Of a stretch of DNA of 64,000 nucleotides, positions 6,471-59,976 are shown in pieces. This stretch comes from a virus (taxonomy: Duplodnaviria > Heunggongvirae > Uroviricota > Caudoviricetes): positions 8,024 to 72,023 of IMG/VR virus record IMGVR_UViG_3300046096_000174. One strand, written 5' to 3'. The position numbers and the translations under genes are program-made. Every line of letters starts with the position of its first letter. Within the stretch, counting starts at the first letter, position 1. A model generated the notes under the pieces. It searched no databases. It worked only from the letters and a program-made list of their open reading frames with translations, and was not told the DNA's origin.

Positions 6471-8174
6471 TTATTGACATGCTTCACATTCACCTTTAGC
6501 TGCTTGAACACCAGCCTGAGTGTAAATGTAGTATAACGCTAAAATGCTTTCATCGTGAAAAGCTTCTTTATGAACTTCCGCAATCCAAGCAGGGTCTTCG
6601 TCAGCAGCAAAGAACAGGTTCAATGATTGCCATTGGTCGATGTACTTGCTACGTGCTGAAGCTAATCTTAACACAGCTTTCTGGTTAATTTCAAAAGCTG
6701 TTTTAAACACATTTTTCTCTTCGGCTGTCAACCATTCAACATGCTGTACAGAGCCTTGCTTATCGGTAATCTCTTGTACGTGTTTCTTAGTATATACACC
6801 CTTAGACTTCATTAGACCAAGTAGTACAGGATTCAAACGGTCAATCTCACCAGCTGCAGTCATTTGATTGTAGCTCATAGCAGGGTCAGGATTAATACCT
6901 TCAGAGATACCACCCATTAACAACGCTGTAGACTTTGTAGGAGCAATTGCAATACGGTGAGTATTACGTACACCATAACCTTTGCACCACTCTGGTTCAC
7001 CTAGAATTAAAGCTAAGTCTTGAGTTGCACGTAAGGATTCTTTATCAATATGCGCTTGAATTTCTTGACTTAACATATGAGCATCAAACGATTCGAATGG
7101 CAACATATTCTGCATAAACAGTGTATGGATACCGCACAAACCTAAACCTAATGCACGACTCTTTTCAGTAAAGCGTACCGCCTTCTCTAATCCCTTAATA
7201 TCCTTAGCTCGTTCAATAAATTCACTAGCAACACAATCTAAGAATACTGTAGCCCAATAAGCGGCTTCGGTAGACTTCCATTCATGCCATTTAGAGCCAT
7301 TCATTGAAGATAGAACACAAGTATAGGTATGCTCTAAATCGTTGAATAACATAATCTCAGAACAAAGCTGAGAGTTATTAATCATCAAGCCCAAGTCTTT
7401 ATACATTGCTGGACGTTTAGCATTGGCCTTATCGATAAAGAAAAAGTATCCTTTACCAGTGACCATCTTAACCTTCATGGCAGATTGGAAACGATTCAAA
7501 GCTTCTGCATCACCAGCATTTAGACGGTCAATAAACGATTGTCGAATAGTCCATCCAATATTTAAATCATCAGGCTCTGAAGAGATAAGGTCAACTACTT
7601 CTTGGAAATCACCATGTTCAATATCAAGATAGCAAGCCCATGCACCTCTACGTGCAGTACCTTGTGCAATATTACGCATAGCATTAACGTGTTCTTTAAT
7701 GACAGGAATAACGCCAGAAGCTTTGCCACCTACGCTAATCTTAGAACCACGAGGACGTACATGAGAGAAGTCACTAGCTGTACCAAAACCATGCTTAGTT
7801 AACGTAGCTACTTCATGTAAGTTACTGTAGAAACCATCGACTGAATCACCAACCACTGTACCAGAGCAAGATACTGGCATACCACGAGTAGTACCCATGT
7901 TAGCCAACACTGGTGTAGAGGGGCTTAACCAGCCTTTCCAAAATAAATTAAAGAACTCAGCTTCAGCTGTAGCTTGGAAATCAGCAGGTAAGTGTTTAAC
8001 TGCAGTCTTAGCAATGCGCTCAAACTGTCCACGAATGGAACGCCCGTTTGTTTCATACTCATATTTATCCTTAAACATTTGGTAGCCAGCTGTGGTGTAC
8101 CATTCAGGAACTAAGCCCTTCTCTTGTAACTCTTTACGCTCTTCACTTAACTTCTTGTAAATATTGTCTGTCAT
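6471..8174 (-). CDS. nrdA: Ribonucleotide reductase class I large subunit
   Basis: Motifs NSQLCSEI and GLGLCGIHTLF with a C-terminal Cys pair (ECEACQ). Start set to ATG at 8174 (Met32 of the track ORF), giving a TAAGATG junction with nrdB. Confidence 0.8.
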   Translation of the reverse strand: MTDNIYKKLSEERKELQEKGLVPEWYTTAGYQMFKDKYEYETNGRSIRGQFERIAKTAVKHLPADFQATAEAEFFNLFWKGWLSPSTPVLANMGTTRGMPVSCSGTVVGDSVDGFYSNLHEVATLTKHGFGTASDFSHVRPRGSKISVGGKASGVIPVIKEHVNAMRNIAQGTARRGAWACYLDIEHGDFQEVVDLISSEPDDLNIGWTIRQSFIDRLNAGDAEALNRFQSAMKVKMVTGKGYFFFIDKANAKRPAMYKDLGLMINNSQLCSEIMLFNDLEHTYTCVLSSMNGSKWHEWKSTEAAYWATVFLDCVASEFIERAKDIKGLEKAVRFTEKSRALGLGLCGIHTLFMQNMLPFESFDAHMLSQEIQAHIDKESLRATQDLALILGEPEWCKGYGVRNTHRIAIAPTKSTALLMGGISEGINPDPAMSYNQMTAAGEIDRLNPVLLGLMKSKGVYTKKHVQEITDKQGSVQHVEWLTAEEKNVFKTAFEINQKAVLRLASARSKYIDQWQSLNLFFAADEDPAWIAEVHKEAFHDESILALYYIYTQAGVQAAKGECEACQ

Positions 8175-11070: not shown

Positions 11071-12018
11071 TTAAGCCAACAATGATTTGCGTTTATTTGC
11101 ACTTGTGATTGTTTTACGGTCACGATGTACAGCACCACAACTATTACAACGAACTTCTTCAAACTTATTTAAAGAGGTTTCAGTTGTACGGCCTGTTGGA
11201 GATACATCATCACTACCACAAACACGGCAACGAACCTTATCATCTTCGTAGTACAAGGCAGCATTAAAGTCTGAACCTGCACGACCAAGTTGGCGAGTGC
11301 GTAAGTATACCTCATAAAGTAGGTCAACGTCCTGAGCGCAGTAAGTAACCATGTCTTCCATAGCTTTTACATTGCCTTCTTGGACCCTACGCCATAGAGA
11401 AATACCGCCAGTTGAAATCTTACGACCTAAGTTAAAGAATTCACCGATAGCATCTAAACGGTTGCTAGGCAGCTTCAAATATTTCTTAACGAGTAAGAGG
11501 GTATCTAAAACCTTGACCTGAGGTAAAGGAGGGAAACCGTTAACGACTGCACGAGTTTGTACAACCTTATGGTCAAAACCTTGTGAGTTATGAGCAATAA
11601 CAGCATCAGCCTCTTCGTATAACTCAAACAATTGAGCTACTAAGCGACTATCATCTTTCTCAGCTACTTCCTGAGGGGTTAACCAGATACGATGAACTTT
11701 TTGTTCACCTAACCAGCGCCAGCAAGCACATAGCAACCAACCACCGTTATCTAAGATATTGTCCTGAGATAGGTTAACCTTGAATCGACCAAAGGTTAGA
11801 GCCGTAGCTGCAGCTGTTTCAGTATCAAAGATTAGGACACGAGGACCACCTTTATTAAAGGCTACATCGCGTGGGTCATACTGCAGTTCATTGCTGCGCT
11901 GTAGTGCATAATTTACACCACTTTTGCTAATCTCTAAAAGGCCAGCAATATCTCTGGATGATAAACCATTTGCATTTAGGTCTAAGATTGCTTTAATTGT
12001 CTCTTGTGAATATTTCAT
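11071..12018 (-). CDS. HTH - DEDD-type 3'-5' exonuclease (RNase H-like) - C-terminal zinc ribbon protein
   Basis: N-terminal HTH (LSSRDIAGLLEISKSGV). Exo motifs VLIFDTETAA and AHNSQGFDHKV. C-terminal CRVCGSD...CNSCG. Start at Met37 (12018), abutting the upstream gene. Confidence 0.55.
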   Translation of the reverse strand: MKYSQETIKAILDLNANGLSSRDIAGLLEISKSGVNYALQRSNELQYDPRDVAFNKGGPRVLIFDTETAAATALTFGRFKVNLSQDNILDNGGWLLCACWRWLGEQKVHRIWLTPQEVAEKDDSRLVAQLFELYEEADAVIAHNSQGFDHKVVQTRAVVNGFPPLPQVKVLDTLLLVKKYLKLPSNRLDAIGEFFNLGRKISTGGISLWRRVQEGNVKAMEDMVTYCAQDVDLLYEVYLRTRQLGRAGSDFNAALYYEDDKVRCRVCGSDDVSPTGRTTETSLNKFEEVRCNSCGAVHRDRKTITSANKRKSLLA

Positions 12019-12019
12019 G

Positions 12020-12544
12020 TTACTCCTGTTGGTCTTTAAACCTGCGCTTAACTTCTTCAAAGTTAATAGGCTTATAATCTGTGTGTTCCACGCTAACACA
12101 AAGGTAACGTGGGTCAATCTTACCATTTCTCATTACTCGATTATTATGCAAGTGTCCATGAATGTTACCAGCATAGCGTCCCAATGATTCCTCATGGATA
12201 GGCATATGGGTTAGCATATATTTGTCAAGCATATGGTAAGCACGAATATCACGAAAGAAGGGTAAGTACTCTTCTAACCTGAAAATATCGTGGTTGCCTT
12301 TAATCAAAATTTGGTCACCATTCAAACGATGGAGAAGTTTTAAAGCTTTGCGATTAATAACAACATCACCTAAATGATAAACCTTATCTTTAGGGCTTAC
12401 GGTTGAATTCCAAAGCTCTACCATATCTTCATCCATCTGGTCAGGGTCAATCCAAGGTCTGCATTTAGTACCGTCAGCCATGACGAACTTGCAAACCCCA
12501 ACATGACCCCAATGAGTGTCACTTGTCAGAAACACTTCGCTCAT
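12020..12544 (-). CDS. Calcineurin-like metallophosphoesterase (Ser/Thr phosphatase-like)
   Basis: Motifs DTHWGH, HLGDVV, GNHD and H.H, as in lambda PPase-type enzymes. Confidence 0.65.
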   Translation of the reverse strand: MSEVFLTSDTHWGHVGVCKFVMADGTKCRPWIDPDQMDEDMVELWNSTVSPKDKVYHLGDVVINRKALKLLHRLNGDQILIKGNHDIFRLEEYLPFFRDIRAYHMLDKYMLTHMPIHEESLGRYAGNIHGHLHNNRVMRNGKIDPRYLCVSVEHTDYKPINFEEVKRRFKDQQE

Positions 12545-18135: not shown

Positions 18136-18237
18136 TGGTGCAACTGGATGGGCTCGAACCATCGGCTTGGTTTTCCCTCTGGCATTAGGTCCTTCACCAT
18201 GAAGAGGTTCCTGCTCTACCAACTGAGCTACAGTCGC
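18136..18237 (-). tRNA. tRNA-like element with an abnormal central region, about 102 nt
   Basis: Minus-strand reading GCGACTG-TA-GCTCAGTTGGTAGAGC ... GATGGTTCGAGCCCATC-CAGTTGC-A-CCA. The acceptor stem, D-arm and T-arm are canonical. The 49-nt segment between the D and T arms has no standard 5-7-5 anticodon arm. Its best pairing is CCTCT/AGAGG enclosing 22 nt. Confidence 0.4.
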
Positions 18238-18600: not shown

Positions 18601-18679
18601 TGGCGCGTCTGGAGGGATTCGAACCCCCATTGACTCCATTACGATACTACGGTGTAGAAGACCGTTTCGGTACAGACGC
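18601..18679 (-). tRNA. tRNA-like element lacking a normal D-arm (possible Arg-UCU anticodon arm)
   Basis: Acceptor GCGTCTG/CAGACGC-G-CCA. T-arm GGGGG-TTCGAAT-CCCTC. Hairpin ACGGT-CTTCTAC-ACCGT. Only 5 nt separate the acceptor and the anticodon stem. Confidence 0.35.
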
Positions 18680-37753: not shown

Positions 37754-38248
37754 ATGAAACATTTAGAAGGTGATTTGATTGAATTAGCTCGTGCAGGGCA
37801 TTTCAACTATATCGTTCAAGGTTGCAATTGTTTTTGCACTATGGGTAAAGGTATCGCTAAACAAATTAAGAAAGAATTTCCTGCAGCTTATGCAGCCGAT
37901 TGCTTGACTTTCTATGGTGACCGTGCTAAACTCGGTACATACAGTATTATGTATGGCCCTATCACCGTTATCAATGCATACACTCAGTATGATTTTGCTA
38001 AAGGCTACGATGGTACTGGTGATTACTTCGAGTACGAAGCATTCCAAAAAGTCCTAGACCGTTTGGTTAAAGACCACGGTCACCGTGACTTCGGTTTTCC
38101 CTACATTGGTATGGGACTAGCTGGAGGTGATAGTAAACGCATTCTAGGTATGCTACAAGGCTTTGCAGATGCTGTTAAGCTTAAGGGAGGGTCAGTAACA
38201 TTAGTGAAGTACCCTATGAATAGAATTTTACGAAAGGAAACAGCTTGA
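37754..38248 (+). CDS. Macro domain protein (ADP-ribose / ADPR-1''-phosphate processing family)
   Basis: Macro signatures IVQGCNCFCTMGKGIA and GFPYIGMGLAGGD. Confidence 0.6.
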   Translation: MKHLEGDLIELARAGHFNYIVQGCNCFCTMGKGIAKQIKKEFPAAYAADCLTFYGDRAKLGTYSIMYGPITVINAYTQYDFAKGYDGTGDYFEYEAFQKVLDRLVKDHGHRDFGFPYIGMGLAGGDSKRILGMLQGFADAVKLKGGSVTLVKYPMNRILRKETA

Positions 38249-39144
38249 TTTCAGCTAAAATTATTGCCGACAGTTTTAACCCAACTTTCGATGCACGTAT
38301 TACAACTTTCGAATTGGTATACCCACGATTTATTCACGGTGAGTTAATGACCCACCGAGTATTCAGCCGCAATGCTGCAAGTTCTCGTGCTATTCCAATC
38401 GATAAGGTTATTGAGCTAGTCGAAGCAACTCCAGCTATGCCTGTGCATTGGGGTGCTAACCAAGCAGGTATGCAAGCCAAAGAAGAAGTCGTAGGTAAAG
38501 AACTAGCTAAGTTATTATGGCTTAATGCTCGTGATAGTGCCGTAGCTAACGCACGACTATTACAGAAGGCAGGACTGCATAAGCAGATTGTCAACCGTGT
38601 ATTGGAACCATTCCAACTCATTAAAACAATCGTCACTGCTACTCAATGGAATAACTGGTTTTGGTTGCGTGACCATGTGGATGCACAACCAGAGATTGCA
38701 GAATTAGCTGCAGTTATGGCTATTGCTTATGATGCAAGCGCACCAGAATTACTAGTTAATAACGAATGGCATGTACCTTACGTTAAAACATTGGTAAGTC
38801 CCTATCAAGGTCGTATCTATTTAGATGAACTTGATAACTACATTACTGTAGAAGAAGCGCGAATGATTAGTGCCAGCTGTTGCGCTCAGGTTAGCTATCG
38901 TAAGAATGATGGTAGCCTAGAGAAAGCTTCTATGGTATTTGACCGATTAATTAACTCAGTGCCAGTGCATGCTTCACCAGTTGAGCATATCGCTACACCG
39001 ATTCCTTATGAGAGTTTCGCAGGTGATTATTTAGATATTGAAGGTGTAACCCATATCGACAAGAATAATGTCCCACACAGCGGTAATTTTCATGGTTGGA
39101 TTCAATTCCGTCAGTTAATTCCTAACAACGTCAAAGCACTATGA
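38245..39144 (+). CDS. thyX: Flavin-dependent thymidylate synthase
   Basis: ThyX signature RHR-x7-S (MTHRVFSRNAASSRA). Confidence 0.75.
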   Translation: MISAKIIADSFNPTFDARITTFELVYPRFIHGELMTHRVFSRNAASSRAIPIDKVIELVEATPAMPVHWGANQAGMQAKEEVVGKELAKLLWLNARDSAVANARLLQKAGLHKQIVNRVLEPFQLIKTIVTATQWNNWFWLRDHVDAQPEIAELAAVMAIAYDASAPELLVNNEWHVPYVKTLVSPYQGRIYLDELDNYITVEEARMISASCCAQVSYRKNDGSLEKASMVFDRLINSVPVHASPVEHIATPIPYESFAGDYLDIEGVTHIDKNNVPHSGNFHGWIQFRQLIPNNVKAL

Positions 39145-44861: not shown

Positions 44862-45082
44862 GCCATGAACTAGCAGAAACCGAATGGAAAGGTATGCCTG
44901 AGTTCGTACAAGACAAGCAAGAACCCTATGCTAAGATTATCATTCGCTTTCGCAATCAAGAAGACTTAGACGAGTTTGCTAACCTAGTCGGTCAAAAGCT
45001 TACAGCTAAAACCAAAAGCATGTGGCATCCGTTCTTAGAGCGAGGTATCAACGCGAATAAAAGGTACGTAGATGAATCCTAA
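44858..45082 (+). CDS. Hypothetical protein
   Basis: ORF. Confidence 0.3.
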   Translation: MSHELAETEWKGMPEFVQDKQEPYAKIIIRFRNQEDLDEFANLVGQKLTAKTKSMWHPFLERGINANKRYVDES

Positions 45083-45941
45083 ATATCCTATTTACATTGT
45101 ATCTAAGGGAAGGGCACATACTCGGTTGACTAGCAAGGCGCTAGAACGCATGCAAGTGCCCTACAGCATCGTTGTTGAAGAGCAGGAATACCTAGAGTAC
45201 TCCAAGGTAATTGACCCCTCTAAAATCCTCGTATTACCGCAGAGCTGGTTGGACGAATACGATACGTGTGATGACTTGGGTAATACGCTGAGTAAGGGAC
45301 CGGGAGCAGCGCGGAACTTCTGCTGGTGGCATGCAAAGCACCTAGGGGCTAAACGTCATTGGGTTATGGACGATAACCTAGATGCTTTCCATCGCCTAAA
45401 CCATAACATGAAAGTTGTGGTAGAAACTGGCTCATGTTTTAAAGCAGCCGAGGATTTTGTTGACCGTTATACCAATGTTCCGTTAGCTGGTTTTAACTAC
45501 TACTCGTTTGCGAAAGCTACAGATAAAGTACCACCTTTTATTGCAAATACCCGTATCTACTCTTGTCTCTTGATTGAAAATTCTGCACCGTATTACTGGC
45601 GTGGACGCTACAATGAAGATACGGACTTATCCCTACGGATATTGAAGGATGGATGGTGTACAATTCAATTCAATGCATTCTTGCAGGGTAAGGTAACTAC
45701 GCAGCGCATGCGTGGAGGAAATACCGAAGAGTTCTATCGTCACGAAGGCACTAAGAACAAATCACAGATGCTGGTGGACTTACATCCAGATGTAACCGAG
45801 CTGGTATGGAAGTTCAACCGTTGGCATCATCATGTTGATTACAGGCCATTCAAAAATAATCTGTTGATTAAACGCGAAAGTCTAGAAATCTCTGATACAA
45901 TCGACAACTACGGAATGAAACTAATTGAAAGGACAAGATAA
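45072..45941 (+). CDS. Hypothetical protein with a DxD-like motif (possible nucleotide-sugar/glycosyltransferase-like fold)
   Basis: IYIVSKGRA...HWVMDDNLDAF (DxD). Weak; no family assignment possible by eye. Confidence 0.35.
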   Translation: MNPKYPIYIVSKGRAHTRLTSKALERMQVPYSIVVEEQEYLEYSKVIDPSKILVLPQSWLDEYDTCDDLGNTLSKGPGAARNFCWWHAKHLGAKRHWVMDDNLDAFHRLNHNMKVVVETGSCFKAAEDFVDRYTNVPLAGFNYYSFAKATDKVPPFIANTRIYSCLLIENSAPYYWRGRYNEDTDLSLRILKDGWCTIQFNAFLQGKVTTQRMRGGNTEEFYRHEGTKNKSQMLVDLHPDVTELVWKFNRWHHHVDYRPFKNNLLIKRESLEISDTIDNYGMKLIERTR

Positions 45942-49548: not shown

Positions 49549-49552
49549 AATC

Positions 49553-50265
49553 CAAAAACCTACTTGGGTTCTACTGGACTGAAAAGCCGCGAAGGGTTTA
49601 AAAATCCGCGATAGGTTTGAAATCTAAAAAGTACCCAAAAACCTACGCCCCCTTTGGTGAACAAAAACAACTGGCATTTTCCCTCGCGGGGCGATGCTTC
49701 GCAAAATGCGAAGATTTATCAGAATCATAAGCTTCTCGATTTGATATGGCACGGACTTTGCTAATAGCAAGAAGCATGCCAACCAGAAAACCAAGCAAGA
49801 ATTGTGCCAGCTGGATGCAAGCAAATATCATGCCAATAATACCCGACCAGCATCAGGGGTTATTACGTGGCGCGGTTTTTGCTAATAGCAGGAAGCATGC
49901 CAGCAGGGGCAAGGGCAAGAAACGTGCCAGCCAACTTTACACAGGACCGATTTAAACGCCCCACAAGGCCCCGAAGCCATGCCAAGCCACTACCACACCA
50001 GCCGAAGTTATCCACAGCACTAGTGGTACTTATCCACAATTTGAACTCTTATATAAGACTAATAAACTGTGGATAACTTTTTGACGTATTGGAAACAAAG
50101 GTATTCAGGGGCAACCATTCAGGAAACAAAAGTTAACATTCTGGCCATCATAGGTTTTGACTATAGACCCGATTAAAAATATTAATCACATCCCCGCCGA
50201 TAGCGGGGTTTTTCGCATATACTGGAGGCACTGGAATAAACCAGCAACAGCAACAGGGGCAGAGA
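49553..50265. repeat. Ori-like noncoding region: direct repeats, an inverted repeat, iteron-like ~120-bp duplicated units and a DnaA-box cluster
   Basis: Direct repeats CCAAAAACCTAC (49553, 49634) and GCGAWAGGTTT (x2). Palindrome CTTCGCAAAATGCGAAG (~49698). Duplicated unit TTTGCTAATAGCARGAAGCATGCCARC...GCAAGAANNGTGCCAGC at 49757..49815 and 49878..49932. No credible CDS; the track ORFs here run on both strands as GC-driven artefacts. Confidence 0.5.
50008..50076. promoter_or_regulatory. Three perfect DnaA boxes (TTATCCACA at 50008 and 50030; TGTGGATAA at 50068) flanking an AT-rich 30-bp core
   Basis: Exact matches to the 9-mer DnaA box consensus in both orientations within 70 bp. AT-rich segment aatttgaactcttatataagactaataaac between them. 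Confidence 0.6.
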
Positions 50266-50451
50266 ATGACACAGGACCAAATCAAGAACAGCGCATACAT
50301 GCAAGCGGTACAACAGGCAGGACGCGAAGCCGCCAACAGCGATAAAATGACGCACTACGCAGTGCAAGAAGCCGCCGACAAATACGGCGTACAATACAAT
50401 CAAGTTCGTTTTGCCATGTTCGACATTATCAACAACAAGAAGACAAAATAA
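50266..50451 (+). CDS. Hypothetical protein (GC-rich island gene 1)
   Basis: RBS-like AGGGGCAGAGA before the ATG. GC3-rich codon usage distinct from the rest of the phage. Confidence 0.4.
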   Translation: MTQDQIKNSAYMQAVQQAGREAANSDKMTHYAVQEAADKYGVQYNQVRFAMFDIINNKKTK

Positions 50452-50524
50452 ATTTTACAGGGTAGCCGATAACGTCAAATTATCGGTTACACTATCAACA
50501 ACAGCAACAAAACAGGGTTTCCAA

Positions 50525-50611
50525 ATGTCCGAATTTTCCGCATATCTCGCCAGCCTCGCAATTGTCCTACTTTTTGTGGGGTTTATTCTGGACCTCGCAA
50601 ACCGCCCATAA
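50525..50611 (+). CDS. 28-aa hydrophobic peptide (island)
   Basis: MSEFSAYLASLAIVLLFVGFILDLANRP. Upstream CAGGGTTTCC. Sub-threshold size. Confidence 0.25.
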   Translation: MSEFSAYLASLAIVLLFVGFILDLANRP

Positions 50612-50770
50612 TTTCGGGTATAATTTCAGCACCAACAACCGAAAGCCTGAACCATGAAAACCAAGCAAACCGCCGCCGATTATCTCGCCGCCTTATGTAT
50701 AGCCGCCGCCTTATGCGTGGGCGCGTTGGCATACTTTGATTGTCTCACCAAGTAAACAAGGGCCAACACC

Positions 50771-50956
50771 ATGACCAAATCAGAAGCCAAAGAACTGACT
50801 AAAATCAAACTATTTCACCAAATGGGCCACCACGACACCGCCGCCCGAAGCCTAAGCGCCTTGATTAGAGCCACCAGAACCACCGCCAACAAGGCCGACA
50901 TGATAAAGACAGCCGAAGCCCTCAAACTTACCGCAAACCCTGATTTTATCGTATAG
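50771..50956 (+). CDS. Hypothetical protein (island)
   Basis: ORF. Confidence 0.35.
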   Translation: MTKSEAKELTKIKLFHQMGHHDTAARSLSALIRATRTTANKADMIKTAEALKLTANPDFIV

Positions 50957-51038
50957 AATACCAGCTTATGCCCTACAGGTTAGCCCCTGAGAGCATAGGC
51001 GGGAATTTTCCCGATAACGTCAAACAGGATAGACCACC

Positions 51039-51320
51039 ATGACAAACGCAAACCAAGCCACCACCGTGACCACCGAAGCACCACGCGCCAACGCTGGACA
51101 CTTTACCAAAACGCGTATTTTCTCGCAGTTCGACCAGCTGGACCACCTGAAGGCGGGGCAATGGGTGCAGACCGATACAGGGGCGCGGGGCCAGTACTTA
51201 GGCAAGACAGAGCAAGGGGCGCAGGTTATCAACTGGGTTAAAAATGGAAAGTTCGACACCAAAATGGCATTGTCTAATTCTCCCCTCCGCAAGTTCGCCA
51301 AGATTAACGGCAGCAAATAA
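51039..51320 (+). CDS. Hypothetical protein (island)
   Basis: ORF. Confidence 0.35.
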   Translation: MTNANQATTVTTEAPRANAGHFTKTRIFSQFDQLDHLKAGQWVQTDTGARGQYLGKTEQGAQVINWVKNGKFDTKMALSNSPLRKFAKINGSK

Positions 51321-51330
51321 GGGGCACGAC

Positions 51331-51519
51331 ATGGACCGCATCACCTTGACCATCCACGAAAACGGCAGCGCAACAGCGCGGGGCATTTTCACCGACAGCC
51401 GCGACAACCGCGCCAGCATGAACCGCACGTATGCAACAGAGCAACAGGCGCGGCAAGAATTCCACGACATGCGAGAGCGCGGGGCCGAATTCTCTTACAC
51501 TATCAACCGCAAGGCATAA
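51331..51519 (+). CDS. Hypothetical protein (island; start at Met30 of the track ORF)
   Basis: AAGGGG RBS before the ATG at 51331. Confidence 0.35.
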   Translation: MDRITLTIHENGSATARGIFTDSRDNRASMNRTYATEQQARQEFHDMRERGAEFSYTINRKA

Positions 51520-51600
51520 AACGCCAAGCAAGGCCCCGAAGCTTTACCGCCTAGGGGTTAGCCTACCAACCGACAAACAACAGCCACAAAGGGGCCTAAA

Positions 51601-51969
51601 ATGTCAGCTTTTATCGTGTCAGACCTTCACACCTTCACAATCGCCAGCTTCGCAGCTGGACGCCTTCGCCTAGGCTCGCATTTTGACCGCGACCAGTTAG
51701 CCCAAAGCCTCGCCAACAGCTTAAAGCGTGTTAACGTGGAAAGCGTCAATTTTCGCTATGCAGAGAAGACACCGCGCACCAAGTGCAAGGCCCAAGCCGT
51801 GACCATCACCGACCCCGCGCAGGTTTACCGCCTCGCCCGATGCTGGATATATCAGGCATGCGAGAACCAGCAAAACGCCGATTTTCACGCCCTGAGCGCC
51901 TTATTAGAGGCAGCATTCACACAGGACGAAAAACGCCAGAGCGACAACGTGGAAATCTGGACAATTTAA
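51601..51969 (+). CDS. Hypothetical protein (island)
   Basis: RBS AAAGGGG. ORF. Confidence 0.4.
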   Translation: MSAFIVSDLHTFTIASFAAGRLRLGSHFDRDQLAQSLANSLKRVNVESVNFRYAEKTPRTKCKAQAVTITDPAQVYRLARCWIYQACENQQNADFHALSALLEAAFTQDEKRQSDNVEIWTI

Positions 51970-51981
51970 ACAGGGGCTAAC

Positions 51982-52881
51982 ATGCACAACACACCAGAAC
52001 AAAACGCAGCATTTAGGGCAGCTTGGGACGCTACCAACGCCCGATATAAAGCCGCCGTAAAAGCCGACCAATTAGCAGCCCAACAAACCAAACCAGAAGC
52101 CGACAGCATGACCACCAGCACCACCCCAAAACGCACCAAGAAGCCACAGAGCGCCATTATTTACAGCGGCCCGAGCTTGATTGATGGAAGCCCGATAGTA
52201 TGCGTGGCAATTGTCACAAGCGGCAATGTGAAGACCGGGAACATGATACAGACCCACATTATCCGCGCCGATATCTCACCACTAGAGGCCAGCAAGACAG
52301 GCGCAGATTTTGCCATATGCGGTAATTGTAAGCACAGGGGCCAAGCCACCACCGACAGCACACGCAAACAGGCACAGGGGCGCACCTGCTACGTGAATCT
52401 TGGACAAGGGCCAAGCCAAGTATTTAAACGCCTTACAGGTACAGGTTACCCCACGGCAACAGCCGAACAGGTTCAAGCCATAGGCCGCGCCCGTATGGTC
52501 AGGCTCGGGACATATGGCGACCCCGCCGCCGTACCTTCGCACATATGGGACCACCTACTAAAAGAAGCCGCAGGGCATACAGGCTACACACACCAGCACG
52601 ACAAAGCGCCCGATTATGCGCGACTGATGCACTCAGCCGACACCAAGGCCGAAGCACTACAGGCACACCGCGCCAACCGCAGGACTTTTCGGGTTATCCC
52701 CGTGGCAGAGTACAACGCACAGGGACCAGCCGCCCTACTTAAGACCGAAATTTTATGCCCCGCAAGTAAAGAAGCAGGGCAGCGGGTAACGTGTGACAAG
52801 TGCAAATTATGCAGCGGCAGCAGCGTACAGGCTAAAAGCGTAGCGATTGTGGCCCACGGAACCAGCAAGGCAGGGGTTTAA
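51982..52881 (+). CDS. Hypothetical Cys-cluster protein, 299 aa (island)
   Basis: RBS CAGGGG. Two Cys clusters (CGNCKHRGQ...C and CDKCKLCSG). No recognisable family. Confidence 0.45.
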   Translation: MHNTPEQNAAFRAAWDATNARYKAAVKADQLAAQQTKPEADSMTTSTTPKRTKKPQSAIIYSGPSLIDGSPIVCVAIVTSGNVKTGNMIQTHIIRADISPLEASKTGADFAICGNCKHRGQATTDSTRKQAQGRTCYVNLGQGPSQVFKRLTGTGYPTATAEQVQAIGRARMVRLGTYGDPAAVPSHIWDHLLKEAAGHTGYTHQHDKAPDYARLMHSADTKAEALQAHRANRRTFRVIPVAEYNAQGPAALLKTEILCPASKEAGQRVTCDKCKLCSGSSVQAKSVAIVAHGTSKAGV

Positions 52882-52883
52882 TT

Positions 52884-53006
52884 ATGCGCGACATTCTTGC
52901 CTTCTTTCTAGCCGCCTACCTTACATTGTGGCTACTATGCGCGGGGCTATATCTCGCAGCATATACCCGCCACTGCATGCACCGCCGAAAGCACCCCACG
53001 GCATAA
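52884..53006 (+). CDS. 40-aa membrane peptide (island)
   Basis: MRDILAFFLAAYLTLWLLCAGLYLAAY.... Sub-threshold size. Confidence 0.25.
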   Translation: MRDILAFFLAAYLTLWLLCAGLYLAAYTRHCMHRRKHPTA

Positions 53007-53018
53007 CCCAAGCACAAA

Positions 53019-53046
53019 CCCCGCCCTAATAAGCGGGGATTTTTTA
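53019..53046 (+). terminator. Rho-independent terminator closing the island operon
   Basis: Stem CCCCGC/GCGGGG with loop cctaataa, followed by ATTTTTT. Confidence 0.65.
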
Positions 53047-53488
53047 CGCCTGAAAGAACCTACAGGGGACCAGCTGCAGGGTATAACCTGAGCAAAAGCA
53101 AAGGCAAAACGCGGGATTGTAGAGGGGAGGATTAGCCAAGCTGCCTAATGAATCAAGCGGGACGCTATACAAGAGGCCTATATTGTCCGATTGTGCATAA
53201 AATCCACGGGTTAAAACCGCCAAGCCTAAACCCTACCGCCTAAAATAAAAATCGACTCGCTACGCTCGTTTAATTACCCTTCGGATATATACTAGAGGGT
53301 TATCTAACCATTGATATCATTGATATTTTAGAATCGTAAGTTATAACCGAGACATAAAGGCGGGGTCCATCAAGCACCTAGGTCATACTGCAGATTTAAA
53401 ACTTTTAAGCATCTAATCCACGAAAATAACCAGCAATTCTATGCATAAAAGTACAAGGTAAAGAACAGCGCATAAACAGTATCAAGCT

Positions 53489-53497
53489 TGTGGATAA
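53489..53497. promoter_or_regulatory. Fourth perfect DnaA box (TGTGGATAA) in the 630-bp noncoding spacer
   Basis: Exact 9-mer, with a weaker TATCCAGA 4 nt downstream. Confidence 0.4.
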
Positions 53498-53679
53498 CAC
53501 TATCCAGATGCCTCTGTAAGGCTCCAAAACGGTCTGTAAGAGCTTGTATTAGCTGCCGAGTACCAATGTAGCCTAAACCTTAATAATGGCTCCTAGAGGC
53601 TTCTATGCAACTAGATATATTAGACGTAAAAAATCCCCAAAGGCTGTTAACCGATGGGGATAAATTTTCTAGATAAATT

Positions 53680-58974: not shown

Positions 58975-59976
58975 ATGGCATTACCATCAACAGGTTCGAT
59001 TTCAATGCTTCAAGTTCGTACAGAGCTTGGAGCTTCTGGCGCTATTAGCTTAGGTCAAGCTAGTGTACGTTCATTAGCTGGTGTAGCTAGTGGTGCTATC
59101 AGTTTAAATAATTTACGTGGTAAGGCTAATGCGTTTAATGCCGCTATTACCTCTAACCAAACTAACTTAAACCTACGTACATGGGCTTTAGCTAACGGTT
59201 GGAATGGTACAACAGCTGCAACTATTACCATTAATAGTGGTGTATACATTTACGCTACAAGCACGGCAAATGCAGGTTTAACTATTAATGGTTCTTGGCC
59301 AGCGGGTATTACCTTAATTAATAATGGTTTTATTATGGGTATGGGCGGCAAAGGTACTGACTCTAGTACCTCACTTGCTGGAGCTGCTGCAGGTCCTGCT
59401 ATTAGTTTAGGTGTCAGTTGTAATATTACTAATAACTCTTACATCGCAGGTGGAGGTGGCGGCGGCGGCGCTGGAGCAGGTGGTGGCGGTGGTGGCGCAG
59501 GTGGTGGTGCAGGTGGAAAAGCTTACTATTCGTTTGGAAACATTGCAGGTGGTGCAGGTGGTGGACCGGGCGCAAGTGGTGCAAATGGTTCAGGTAGTGC
59601 CAACTTGAGCGATGCAGGTGGTGGCGGCGGCAGAATTCTACCGGGTGCTGGCGGTGCTGGCGGTTTCGCAGGTGCGGGACCTTATCATCAGGTTGGTAAT
59701 GTCGGTAAAGGTGGAGGCTCTGGCGGCGGCGGCGGTGGACTAAAACCCGGAATACCAGTTCCCGGAAACTCCACTGGCGGTGCTGGCGGTTCAGGTTCTG
59801 CGGTAGGCGGTGCAGGTACTGGAAGCTTTAAGGGTGGAGGTGGCGGTGGCGGTTGGGGTGCAGCTGGTGGTTCATCTTATACCTACGCTGGCGGCGCAGC
59901 TGGAAAAGCTGTTGCCTTAAATGGTTTCGCTATTACTTGGAACGCTGTAGGTACTCGATACGGTGCAATTAGTTAA
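58975..59976 (+). CDS. Glycine-rich protein (about 45% Gly in the C-terminal two-thirds; poly-Gly/Ala tracts)
   Basis: RBS AAGGTG. The N-terminal ~150 aa is Ser/Thr/Asn-rich and beta-like. Tracts GGGGGGGAGAGGGGGGAGGGAGG recur. The embedded track ORF 59411..59608 is a frame artefact of the GGN repeats. Confidence 0.5.
   Translation: MALPSTGSISMLQVRTELGASGAISLGQASVRSLAGVASGAISLNNLRGKANAFNAAITSNQTNLNLRTWALANGWNGTTAATITINSGVYIYATSTANAGLTINGSWPAGITLINNGFIMGMGGKGTDSSTSLAGAAAGPAISLGVSCNITNNSYIAGGGGGGGAGAGGGGGGAGGGAGGKAYYSFGNIAGGAGGGPGASGANGSGSANLSDAGGGGGRILPGAGGAGGFAGAGPYHQVGNVGKGGGSGGGGGGLKPGIPVPGNSTGGAGGSGSAVGGAGTGSFKGGGGGGGWGAAGGSSYTYAGGAAGKAVALNGFAITWNAVGTRYGAIS

Follow-up and report, generated by a model that had tools for sequence, protein, structure and literature searches.

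Iteron-type theta origins, of which P1 oriR, F oriS, RK2 oriV and the pSC101 origin are the textbook examples, combine a cluster of DnaA boxes with direct repeats of about 17 nt and a short AT-rich stretch, and belong to replicons with replication proteins of their own. DnaA boxes also occur in the first-step-transfer DNA of phage T5, an untranslated region, dense in repeats and palindromes, that adjoins small early genes and is more strongly conserved than the open reading frames (ORFs) around it; a proposed model holds that the inverted DnaA-box repeats there serve as an injection stop signal (iss; bioRxiv 10.1101/866236). Phage morons and other compositionally deviant cassettes, finally, are self-contained groups of small genes that have their own terminator and sit in replaceable slots. 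Here we describe a locus that shares features with all three, located at 49553-53046 of a 64,000-nt stretch of tailed-phage DNA (the window; positions 8,024 to 72,023 of IMG/VR record IMGVR_UViG_3300046096_000174). An initial annotation had taken this locus for a horizontally acquired GC-rich island that brought along its own origin-like leader. The reading that we favor, with moderate confidence, is that the leader is a DnaA/iteron origin-like region of the phage backbone and that the operon behind it was inherited vertically and recoded in place by T-to-C changes, the resulting bias having been maintained. By amino-acid identity of the large terminase, the closest cultured relatives of the window phage are Limnohabitans phage DC31 (85%) and Curvibacter phage P26059A (49%); uncultured relatives and other compared contigs are referred to by locus numbers (L003 and so on).

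The leader consists of the following elements:

49549-50265, no strand: noncoding leader without a conserved ORF; blocks of it are kept in L003 and L006
49552-49563, plus strand: CCAAAAACCTAC repeat, copy 1, an exact match
49635-49646, plus strand: CCAAAAACCTAC repeat, copy 2, an exact match
49747-49990, plus strand: two tandem units of ~121 bp carrying the 17-nt iterons GCAAGAANNNTGCCAGC; repeat families D1-D3
50008-50076, no strand: core module of DnaA boxes and palindrome; inverted repeats I2 and I3
50008-50016, plus strand: DnaA box 1, a perfect TTATCCACA, 13 nt from box 2
50030-50038, plus strand: DnaA box 2, a perfect TTATCCACA, 8 nt from the palindrome
50047-50058, no strand: palindrome TCTTATATAAGA, 12 bp, 9 nt from the inverted box
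50068-50076, minus strand: DnaA box 3, inverted, a perfect TTATCCACA
50192-50213, plus strand: GC-rich hairpin with T-run from the terminator scan, kept in L003 and L006, preceding the first gene

The island had been said to open with about 700 bp of repeat-dense, origin-like noncoding DNA, and this description stands: the leader is 717 bp long and its repeats are well above chance. Perfect TTATCCACA boxes occur four times in the 64 kb, where we estimate that about 0.5 would occur by chance, and three of the four lie inside 70 bp of the core. The iterons begin at 49767, 49795, 49888 and 49915, with a degenerate fifth copy at 49821; the four matches fall within 165 bp, compared with 0.55 expected window-wide, and none of 100 shuffles reached five matches. 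Both of the exact CCAAAAACCTAC copies in the window are in the leader, and DC31 has three at the equivalent place. A motif related to the iteron, GCAAnnATCATGCC, sits between the DnaA boxes of other module-bearing contigs. The region 49991-50090 has a GC content of 0.36 and includes an AT-rich spacer of ~30 bp around the palindrome, the only candidate for a DNA-unwinding element; no 13-mer repeats were seen. The leader of L003 carries a deletion of ~70 nt within one repeat unit.

On these grounds the leader appears most like an iteron-plus-DnaA-box origin. It shares with P1 oriR, F oriS, RK2 oriV and pSC101 the box cluster (to which binding of host DnaA is predicted), the ~17-nt direct repeats, a short stretch of AT-rich DNA as a possible unwinding element and the association with a replicon's own replication proteins. 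It differs from them in that no Rep-like initiator stands next to the module, the linked gene encoding instead a protein of 74-93 aa without known relatives. We know of no counterpart, in known iteron origins, to the conserved palindrome between inverted boxes.

The distribution of the leader speaks to its ownership. The DnaA-box/palindrome core is conserved in both DC31 and P26059A, and a blastn search of 50,697 phage records returned as its sole match this module of ~75 bp in these two phages; megablast of the island plus the upstream 9.5 kb against the same records gave zero matches. In DC31, three CCAAAAACCTAC copies and a set of iterons of its own are followed by unrelated AT-rich genes (GC 0.28-0.31). 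Because DC31 has the leader with different, AT-rich genes behind it, we regard the leader as part of the backbone and not of the GC-rich genes. The DC31 core (12001-12121) contains five perfect boxes and is inverted relative to the flanking genes, which argues that the module would work independently of orientation. Relative L006 has five extra perfect DnaA boxes upstream, at 7512-7624.

A pattern scan for the module (TTATCCACA-N6-9-TCTTATATAAGA) extended this picture to more than 119 IMG/VR contigs from at least two lineages, and the matches listed share the wider box/palindrome layout. Most of the module contigs listed have no detectable protein in common with the window. The initial annotation's acquired module with a leader of its own is difficult to reconcile with this distribution. 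High GC is no general property of module-bearing contigs. Among bacteria, the exact pattern was found in only 3 of 185,579 species genomes, in all three cases in metagenome-derived contigs; given this near absence we consider the module to be phage-specific, and we rejected the idea that it is a copy of a host oriC.

We also found that the module tends to stand where transcription diverges. In the L164 lineage it lies in a 1-kb gap between a leftward terminase/portal block and a rightward early operon, the latter ending in a primase/helicase of the same PHROG as that of the window. Purine skews averaged over 109 loci switch sign at the module, which points to divergent transcription from this position.

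One gene of the operon is linked to the module across loci:

51039-51320, plus strand: 93-aa protein, phrog_21585 (PHROGs E 2e-6)

At least 48 loci encode a homologue of this protein 180-1700 bp from the palindrome, in the direction that leads away from it; in L164 the homologue (E 8e-26) is the first gene after the module. A word-indexed homologue search with the 93-aa protein retrieved two close homologues only, and the family alignment was therefore built from the loci. It reveals a compact conserved core, GQWV..KG..LG..VVAW..LRxYAK, and has no relative among solved structures in the PDB. Given this linkage, the phrog_21585 protein is a candidate binder of the palindrome or the iterons.

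The module may instead have a different function. It could be a DnaA-dependent transcription switch, or a membrane-anchoring or injection-pause site of the T5 kind, with the operon serving as a pre-early gene set; we treat this as a real possibility, although on balance a doubtful one. Consistent with this idea, the module lies between divergent gene blocks in most lineages, as the skew change in the 109 loci and the L164 arrangement illustrate, and the box-palindrome spacing places TTATCC 16-17 nt from TATAAG on both strands. However, A2 and T6, the marks of a sigma-70 -10 element, are never combined in one hexamer of the palindrome, and the promoter scan is empty there; a sigma-70 promoter in the palindrome was rejected as the principal explanation for these reasons. 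Separately, the sequence TTGACT-N17-TATTAA at 50157-50186, directly upstream of the hairpin at 50192-50213, is a moderate sigma-70-like candidate that is partly conserved in L006 and L003 and absent from the promoter scan output. As judged from its sequence, the hairpin itself might be a terminator with an insulating role, an attenuator or else a 5' stem-loop.

With regard to injection, inverted DnaA-box pairs in T5-like phages flank several kilobases of pre-early genes (bioRxiv 10.1101/866236), and the window has its fourth perfect box 3.4 kb to the right of the core; this right-hand box is, however, not conserved. Contig ends are mildly enriched near the module, which lies within 300 bp of an end in 8 of 45 whole-contig loci when 3.7 would be expected, and DUF7227, the family of the largest operon protein (see below), is found at the genome end in mycobacteriophage RhynO and roseophage CRP-118. 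A fixed genome end at the module is nevertheless not supported, since the contig break points differ between relatives. Several contigs of ~80 kb (L013, L014, L017 and L020) begin exactly at the DUF7227 gene, and these starts may represent assembly breaks at a variable or invertible region. The resemblance to T5 is also limited in its details: the eight boxes of T5 form pairs with 3 bp between the members, and these lie inside long inverted repeats that belong to a terminal repeat, whereas here there are three boxes that are 13 nt apart or inverted around a 12-bp palindrome, and no terminal repeat is indicated, so that a T5-type region is not what we find. The window phage is itself not T5-like, its nearest relatives being DC31 and P26059A, and the T5 model is itself only a proposal. 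We continue to favor an origin-like region.

Behind the leader lies the operon, whose parts other than the phrog_21585 gene are as follows:

50266-50451, plus strand: 61-aa ORF, 89% identical to a homologue in L006 only; no family match
50525-50611, plus strand: 28-aa hydrophobic peptide, 82% identical in L003-L005 and 65% in L007
50654-50755, plus strand: 33-aa hydrophobic peptide, from the ORF list, with tblastn homologues
50771-50956, plus strand: 61-aa ORF, 93% identical in L006 and 85% in L007
51331-51519, plus strand: 62-aa ORF of the operon core, with homologues in L003-L007 and L009
51601-51969, plus strand: 122-aa clade-specific protein, with 32 homologues only
51982-52881, plus strand: 299-aa cysteine-rich protein of the DUF7227/phrog_2554 family (profile match), the operon anchor
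52884-53006, plus strand: last gene, encoding a 40-aa hydrophobic peptide whose tail is basic; identity 79% (L003) and 68% (L006)
53019-53045, plus strand: intrinsic terminator, a hairpin with T-run, kept in L003, L006 and L007

The operon is therefore a unit with its own terminator, as had been annotated, but it comprises nine plus-strand ORFs (28-299 aa) rather than about eight, and three small hydrophobic peptides (28, 33 and 40 aa) rather than two membrane peptides. The strong closing terminator is where it was described.

A sliding-window profile confirmed that the stretch is compositionally deviant and revised its boundaries. The two 1-kb windows at 51-53 kb have GC contents of 0.547 and 0.558, and all other 1-kb windows lie between 0.355 and 0.499. 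At 200-bp resolution, GC is 0.50-0.60 across ~50.6-53.1 kb; the contrast with a backbone of ~0.40 is thus as described, but the reported upper value of 70% is never reached, 0.60 being the maximum. Since the leader has a GC content of only 0.45 overall and 0.43-0.53 in 200-bp windows, the GC-rich block is ~2.6 kb long and not 3.5 kb. Two further features that had been noted were borne out. GC at third codon positions (GC3) is 0.61 in the island genes and 0.35 in 20 backbone genes, and the Shine-Dalgarno type differs: AGGGG precedes five of the nine island genes and GGAG none, while in the backbone GGGG precedes 0 of 38 genes and GGAG 15 of 38 (Fisher p = 8e-5). The plus strand of the GC-rich stretch has an AT skew of +0.3 to +0.5 and a negative GC skew (C>G); the excess of A over T is wider than the GC-rich block, extending from ~49.6 to 53.6 kb.

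In that its composition departs from that of the host replicon, the stretch does look like a horizontally acquired island, and we have to consider that the operon, alone or together with the leader, came in as a GC-rich cassette (host DNA, a moron, or what is left of a satellite or plasmid) whose composition has yet to converge on that of the phage. GC content, codon use and ribosome-binding-site type are coherently unlike the backbone; DC31, despite its close terminase, carries unrelated AT-rich genes in the slot, indicating that the slot is exchangeable; DUF7227 is patchily spread among very different phages; and known hosts of the family have a GC content of ~59% (DC31 itself has 37.6% and its host 59.25%; PMC12195039). 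We nevertheless judge acquisition to be quite unlikely.

The operon occupies the same position in at least 10 relatives (L003-L007, L009 and L217-L220), in a slot that is bounded by the leader/140-aa gene side and followed, after a gap of ~0.7-0.8 kb, by ClpP and PhoH genes in convergent orientation. Homologues of the 299-aa protein are present on many contigs of ~80 kb, and in P26059A the corresponding slot contains a remote homologue of DUF7227 (hhalign E 1.7e-4). Among the same-gene-order loci examined, DC31 alone is without the operon; its 252-aa gene was considered as a diverged DUF7227 and rejected (hhalign probability 0.1%). Divergence at four-fold sites in the anchor gene (0.35-0.51) resembles that in flanking genes (0.21-0.64), and the neighbour-joining tree of DUF7227 broadly agrees with those of PhoH and ClpP. 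There is local conflict, since the partner of the window is L003 for DUF7227 but L006 for both PhoH and ClpP, and the window has a single private change where other taxa have 6-15; from these conflicts and the near absence of private changes we infer recombination among close relatives.

Furthermore, the composition of the anchor gene changes by degrees. The proportion of T at four-fold sites of DUF7227 is 0.25-0.43 in outgroups (L008, L009, L016, L018, L019 and L020), 0.12-0.24 in the sister group (L203, L013, L015 and L017) and 0.09-0.16 in the window clade; in PhoH and ClpP of the same phages it is 0.37-0.64. Tree congruence together with this stepwise fall in T argues for change in situ rather than import. 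The leader, as discussed above, belongs to the backbone across the family. Moreover, T-to-C change with A3 unchanged and G3 barely raised is not the profile that a betaproteobacterium of 59% GC would be expected to show, and substitutions to T are rare despite a four-fold divergence of 35-50%. Neither mobility genes (integrase, transposase, relaxase) in the nine ORFs, as searched with Pfam, PHROGs and NCBIfam, nor satellite or plasmid genes (Rep, primase, integrase, capsid-redirecting), as searched with these databases and PADLOC, were found, and neither the repeat scan of the leader nor the flank alignments showed att-type direct repeats on the two sides of the operon.

Recent acquisition, a foreign origin and a satellite or plasmid source are therefore not supported, in view of the synteny, the trees together with the stepwise fall in T, and the lack of such genes and repeats, respectively. 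The initial annotation had named conservation in synteny among relatives, with ordinary phage homologues, as the pattern at odds with its own proposal, and this is largely the pattern that we observed. Compared with phage morons, the operon is inherited vertically within its clade, its deviation deepens gradually, and its one-sided T-to-C shift is unlike donor composition. An assembly chimera or artefact, to which nothing but the abrupt change in composition would point, is scarcely credible: copies in which DUF7227 is 100% identical are present in three independent assemblies from different samples (L010-L012), which excludes it, and diverged copies are present in many others.

We return to recoding in place, which we favor over import. 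The shift is not a general move from AT to GC but one from T to C on the plus strand. From backbone to island, third codon positions change from 0.39 to 0.13 in T and from 0.18 to 0.41 in C; A is unchanged at 0.26, and G is 0.16 in the backbone and 0.20 in the island. Codon positions 1 and 2 shift likewise, with Ala doubling and Thr increasing. GCT, ACT, CCT, GGT and CGT (0.43-0.70 in the backbone) are replaced by C-ending codons and the share of A-ending codons is kept; CAY, AAY, GAY, TGY and AGY also shift to C, and TTY and ATY are unshifted. Noncoding DNA at 49746-49990 and 53047-53250 is T-poor too (T = 0.16). GC is elevated throughout the window clade (0.52-0.57 versus 0.38-0.41 in L003-L006, and 0.43-0.51 versus 0.35 in L007), and AGGGG ribosome-binding sites are restricted to the GC-rich alleles.

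The bias also appears to be maintained. When four-fold changes were polarised by majority among four taxa, changes involving T made up 5 of 34 in the island and 66 of 78 in the flanks. Among changes from C, C>T accounted for 1 of 15 in the island and 7 of 11 in the flanks (p = 0.003), and among changes from A, A>T accounted for 3 of 12 and 17 of 23, respectively (p = 0.011). A repeat with eight taxa gave 2 of 9 versus 12 of 15 for A>T (p = 0.010) and 1 of 7 versus 6 of 8 for C>T (p = 0.04). These polarised counts are small but speak against a passively decaying import.

One explanation for the persistent bias would be mutational: regional strand-asymmetric mutation, for example on a minus strand that stays single-stranded in a D-loop or an antisense R-loop near an origin, or GC-biased gene conversion at a hot spot of recombination. 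Strand-displacement replication of animal mitochondrial DNA is reportedly an example of such prolonged single-strandedness. In line with this possibility, the plus strand is A/C-rich and the minus strand G/T-rich in coding and noncoding DNA alike over ~49.6-53.6 kb, the region adjoins the putative origin, and recombination in the slot is evident. The spectrum of changes does not fit, however. On the plus strand the island has mainly undergone C>A and A>G changes, with few of the G>A and T>C changes that deamination of the minus strand would produce; gene conversion should raise G like C, whereas G3 increases only slightly; and an AT skew of up to 0.5 is far beyond ordinary replication skews. 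We consider a mutational cause unlikely.

Selection is the alternative to a mutational cause that we favor within recoding in place. The folding energy of the island's sense RNA, -33.2 kcal/mol per 150 nt, is in the range of backbone mRNAs (-32 to -35) despite 53% GC. On the same scale the value is -45.5 for the antisense RNA and -44 for random sequence that has 55% GC and no skew. The T-to-C route thus raises duplex GC by ~13 points without adding mRNA structure, which fits selection at the DNA level under an mRNA constraint. Adaptation to the phage's own tRNAs was rejected, as A-ending codons, which are read by UNN-anticodon tRNAs, are used equally in island and backbone.

Several observations weigh against the combination of an origin-like leader and a recoded, inherited operon. 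Two features expected of an iteron-type origin were not found: there is no skew switch at the leader, the cumulative GC skew being lowest at 32-33 kb, the point at which genes change orientation, and showing at 50 kb only a local maximum that comes from the operon's own skew; and searches of the nine ORFs with Pfam, PHROGs and NCBIfam detected no Rep, DnaA or helicase-loader family. The AT-rich spacer between the boxes is only ~30 bp. As to recoding, the polarised counts rest on 21-34 island changes, and because recombination among alleles is evident, some of the 'substitutions' may be imported alleles. The early genes upstream of the operon share its strand and have an ordinary, AT-rich composition, and so an argument from early expression fails to explain why this operon only is recoded.

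A plausible scenario that takes these data into account is that 49.55-50.21 kb is a cis-acting backbone region at which host DnaA would be recruited, and where a dimeric factor, the phrog_21585 protein being the candidate, would bind the palindrome. The DnaA complex would start phage DNA replication, as in P1, F and RK2, and may also gate the adjacent early operon. The segment 50.27-53.05 kb would be an ancient, vertically inherited accessory operon in a replaceable slot between this region and ClpP/PhoH. Recoding from T to C on the sense strand, at synonymous sites, through amino-acid choice and in noncoding DNA, would have arisen within the lineage and the bias would have been kept; its ribosome-binding sites are of the AGGGG type instead of AAGGAG. 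As the cause we favor selection, acting either on expression or on the DNA itself (through local duplex stability, or by keeping clear of AT-directed host factors).

With regard to the operon proteins, gene content around the anchor varies, the 62-, 122-, 28- and 40-aa genes being frequent and the others sporadic; in L007, L009 and DC31 the alignment has a small ORF at the place of the 40-aa gene. Homologues of the 33-aa peptide (tblastn, 47-59% identity) lie near the DnaA module in about a dozen otherwise unrelated contigs (L107, L129, L152, L156, L168, L177, L179, L183, L190, L194 and L197). Pfam, NCBIfam and PADLOC gave no significant match for eight of the nine ORFs, and none of the six soluble ORFs scanned (61-299 aa) matched a defence model. 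The AlphaFold2 model of the 122-aa protein is a five-helix bundle (pLDDT 90) with zero fold matches in the PDB. On the minus strand at 52100-52125, the E. coli Chi octamer GCTGGTGG occurs opposite a run of ACC/AGC codons; this strand is G/T-rich, and the octamer is probably a by-product of codon choice.

It is not the case that nothing in the island can be assigned to a family, as had been stated: besides phrog_21585, the 299-aa protein matches phrog_2554 over residues 25-296 (E 2.9e-64). Its score against PF23872 (DUF7227) is 21 bits, under the 27-bit cut-off, and close homologues carry a precomputed PF23872 match. There are 6083 homologues at E<=1e-10, and 152 phage records with homologues include phages of Mycobacterium, Gordonia, Klebsiella, Microcystis, roseobacter and Caulobacter; as in RhynO and CRP-118, the gene is often near the genome end. 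Seven cysteines are invariant in 48 DUF7227 sequences, arranged as CxxC...C and CP-x10-CxxCxxC, and the motifs GTYGDP (GxYGDP) and HTGYTHQH (TGYTHQ) are also conserved; a motif search retrieved 591 viral loci. The proteins of Mycobacterium, Gordonia, Klebsiella, roseobacter and Caulobacter phages share this cysteine pattern and 39-57% identity over 80% with that of the window, which differs in that ~55 additional residues at its N terminus form a helix, with a disordered linker after it. Its model (pLDDT 85.5) has strands alternating with helices, and Foldseek returned no match to it. A radical-SAM enzyme was rejected, as CxxxCxxC with a partial TIM barrel was not found. DUF7227 is probably a metal- or Fe-S-binding enzyme; a literature search for DUF7227 found no paper mentioning the family.

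To the right of the operon, the intergenic region 53046-53679, between the convergent operon and ClpP genes, holds two conserved motifs and is where the fourth DnaA box lies:

53322-53338, no strand: conserved noncoding motif 1, GATATTTTAGAATCGTA, in 15 loci including DC31; unique in the window
53369-53392, no strand: conserved noncoding motif 2, ATCAAGCACCTAGGTCATACTGCA (also given as ATCAAGCACCTAnGACnnACTGCA and as ATCAAGCACCTA-GAC--ACTGCA), in 15 loci including DC31
53489-53497, minus strand: fourth perfect DnaA box, not kept as a perfect box in relatives

The motifs have no conserved RNA fold and no Rfam match. A noncoding RNA was rejected for this region on the basis of the missing fold and because 53040-53330 folds worse than shuffles. 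Both strands of 53040-53330 are less stable than dinucleotide shuffles (z = +1.8 and +2.0), that is, the segment has unusually little structure.

The window phage (GC ~0.40) encodes a J-like tail protein, ribonucleotide reductase, nicotinamide phosphoribosyltransferase, a family-A DNA polymerase and a primase/helicase, along with PhoH, a ClpP-like protease, the large terminase and ten tRNA genes. Rfam at gathering thresholds found tRNAs only over the window, and nothing at E<=1 over 49.3-53.8 kb. Two of the tRNA-like matches on the minus strand, at 18139-18237 (99 nt) and 18604-18679, score 45 and 39.5 bits and are absent from the ARAGORN output. A second GC bump at 59-60 kb (GC 0.50) coincides with 58975-59976 (GC skew +0.26), which encodes a 333-aa glycine-rich protein; we attribute the bump to the amino-acid composition of this protein, which has long G/A/S runs and is encoded directly after the tRNA cluster. 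A 289-aa TET-associated glycosyltransferase (45072-45941; PF20691, E 2.6e-50) and a 299-aa Thy1-like protein (38245-39144; E 3.3e-8) are also encoded, and these matches suggest that the phage hypermodifies a pyrimidine of its DNA. If directed at C or T, such a modification could interact with the C-rich operon. Relative L007 has a Mom-like gene in the corresponding early region.

These observations have implications beyond the locus itself. DUF7227 is an abundant phage protein family with seven invariant cysteines and no known fold relative, and as such is a target for biochemistry. The operon is a case of a foreign-looking GC island that would have formed in place, and it shows that horizontal transfer is poorly diagnosed from composition alone. 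T-to-C recoding offers a testable case of local composition shaping in phages that are far more AT-rich than their hosts. It is a very tentative suggestion on our part that the lineage progressively recoded an operon of 3 kb beside its origin, with T-to-C change reaching into noncoding DNA, under selection on the DNA duplex for which escape from AT-directed host factors such as H-NS-like xenogeneic silencers, or a stable flank for an unwinding origin, would be possible benefits. The DnaA-box/palindrome module with its phrog_21585 partner would then represent a widespread, previously undescribed phage origin or switch that uses host DnaA. If the module does prove to be an origin or a DnaA switch, it would provide a searchable cis-element, namely a DnaA box, 6-9 nt and TCTTATATAAGA, with the phrog_21585 protein as candidate partner, for a large and mostly uncultured group of freshwater phages.

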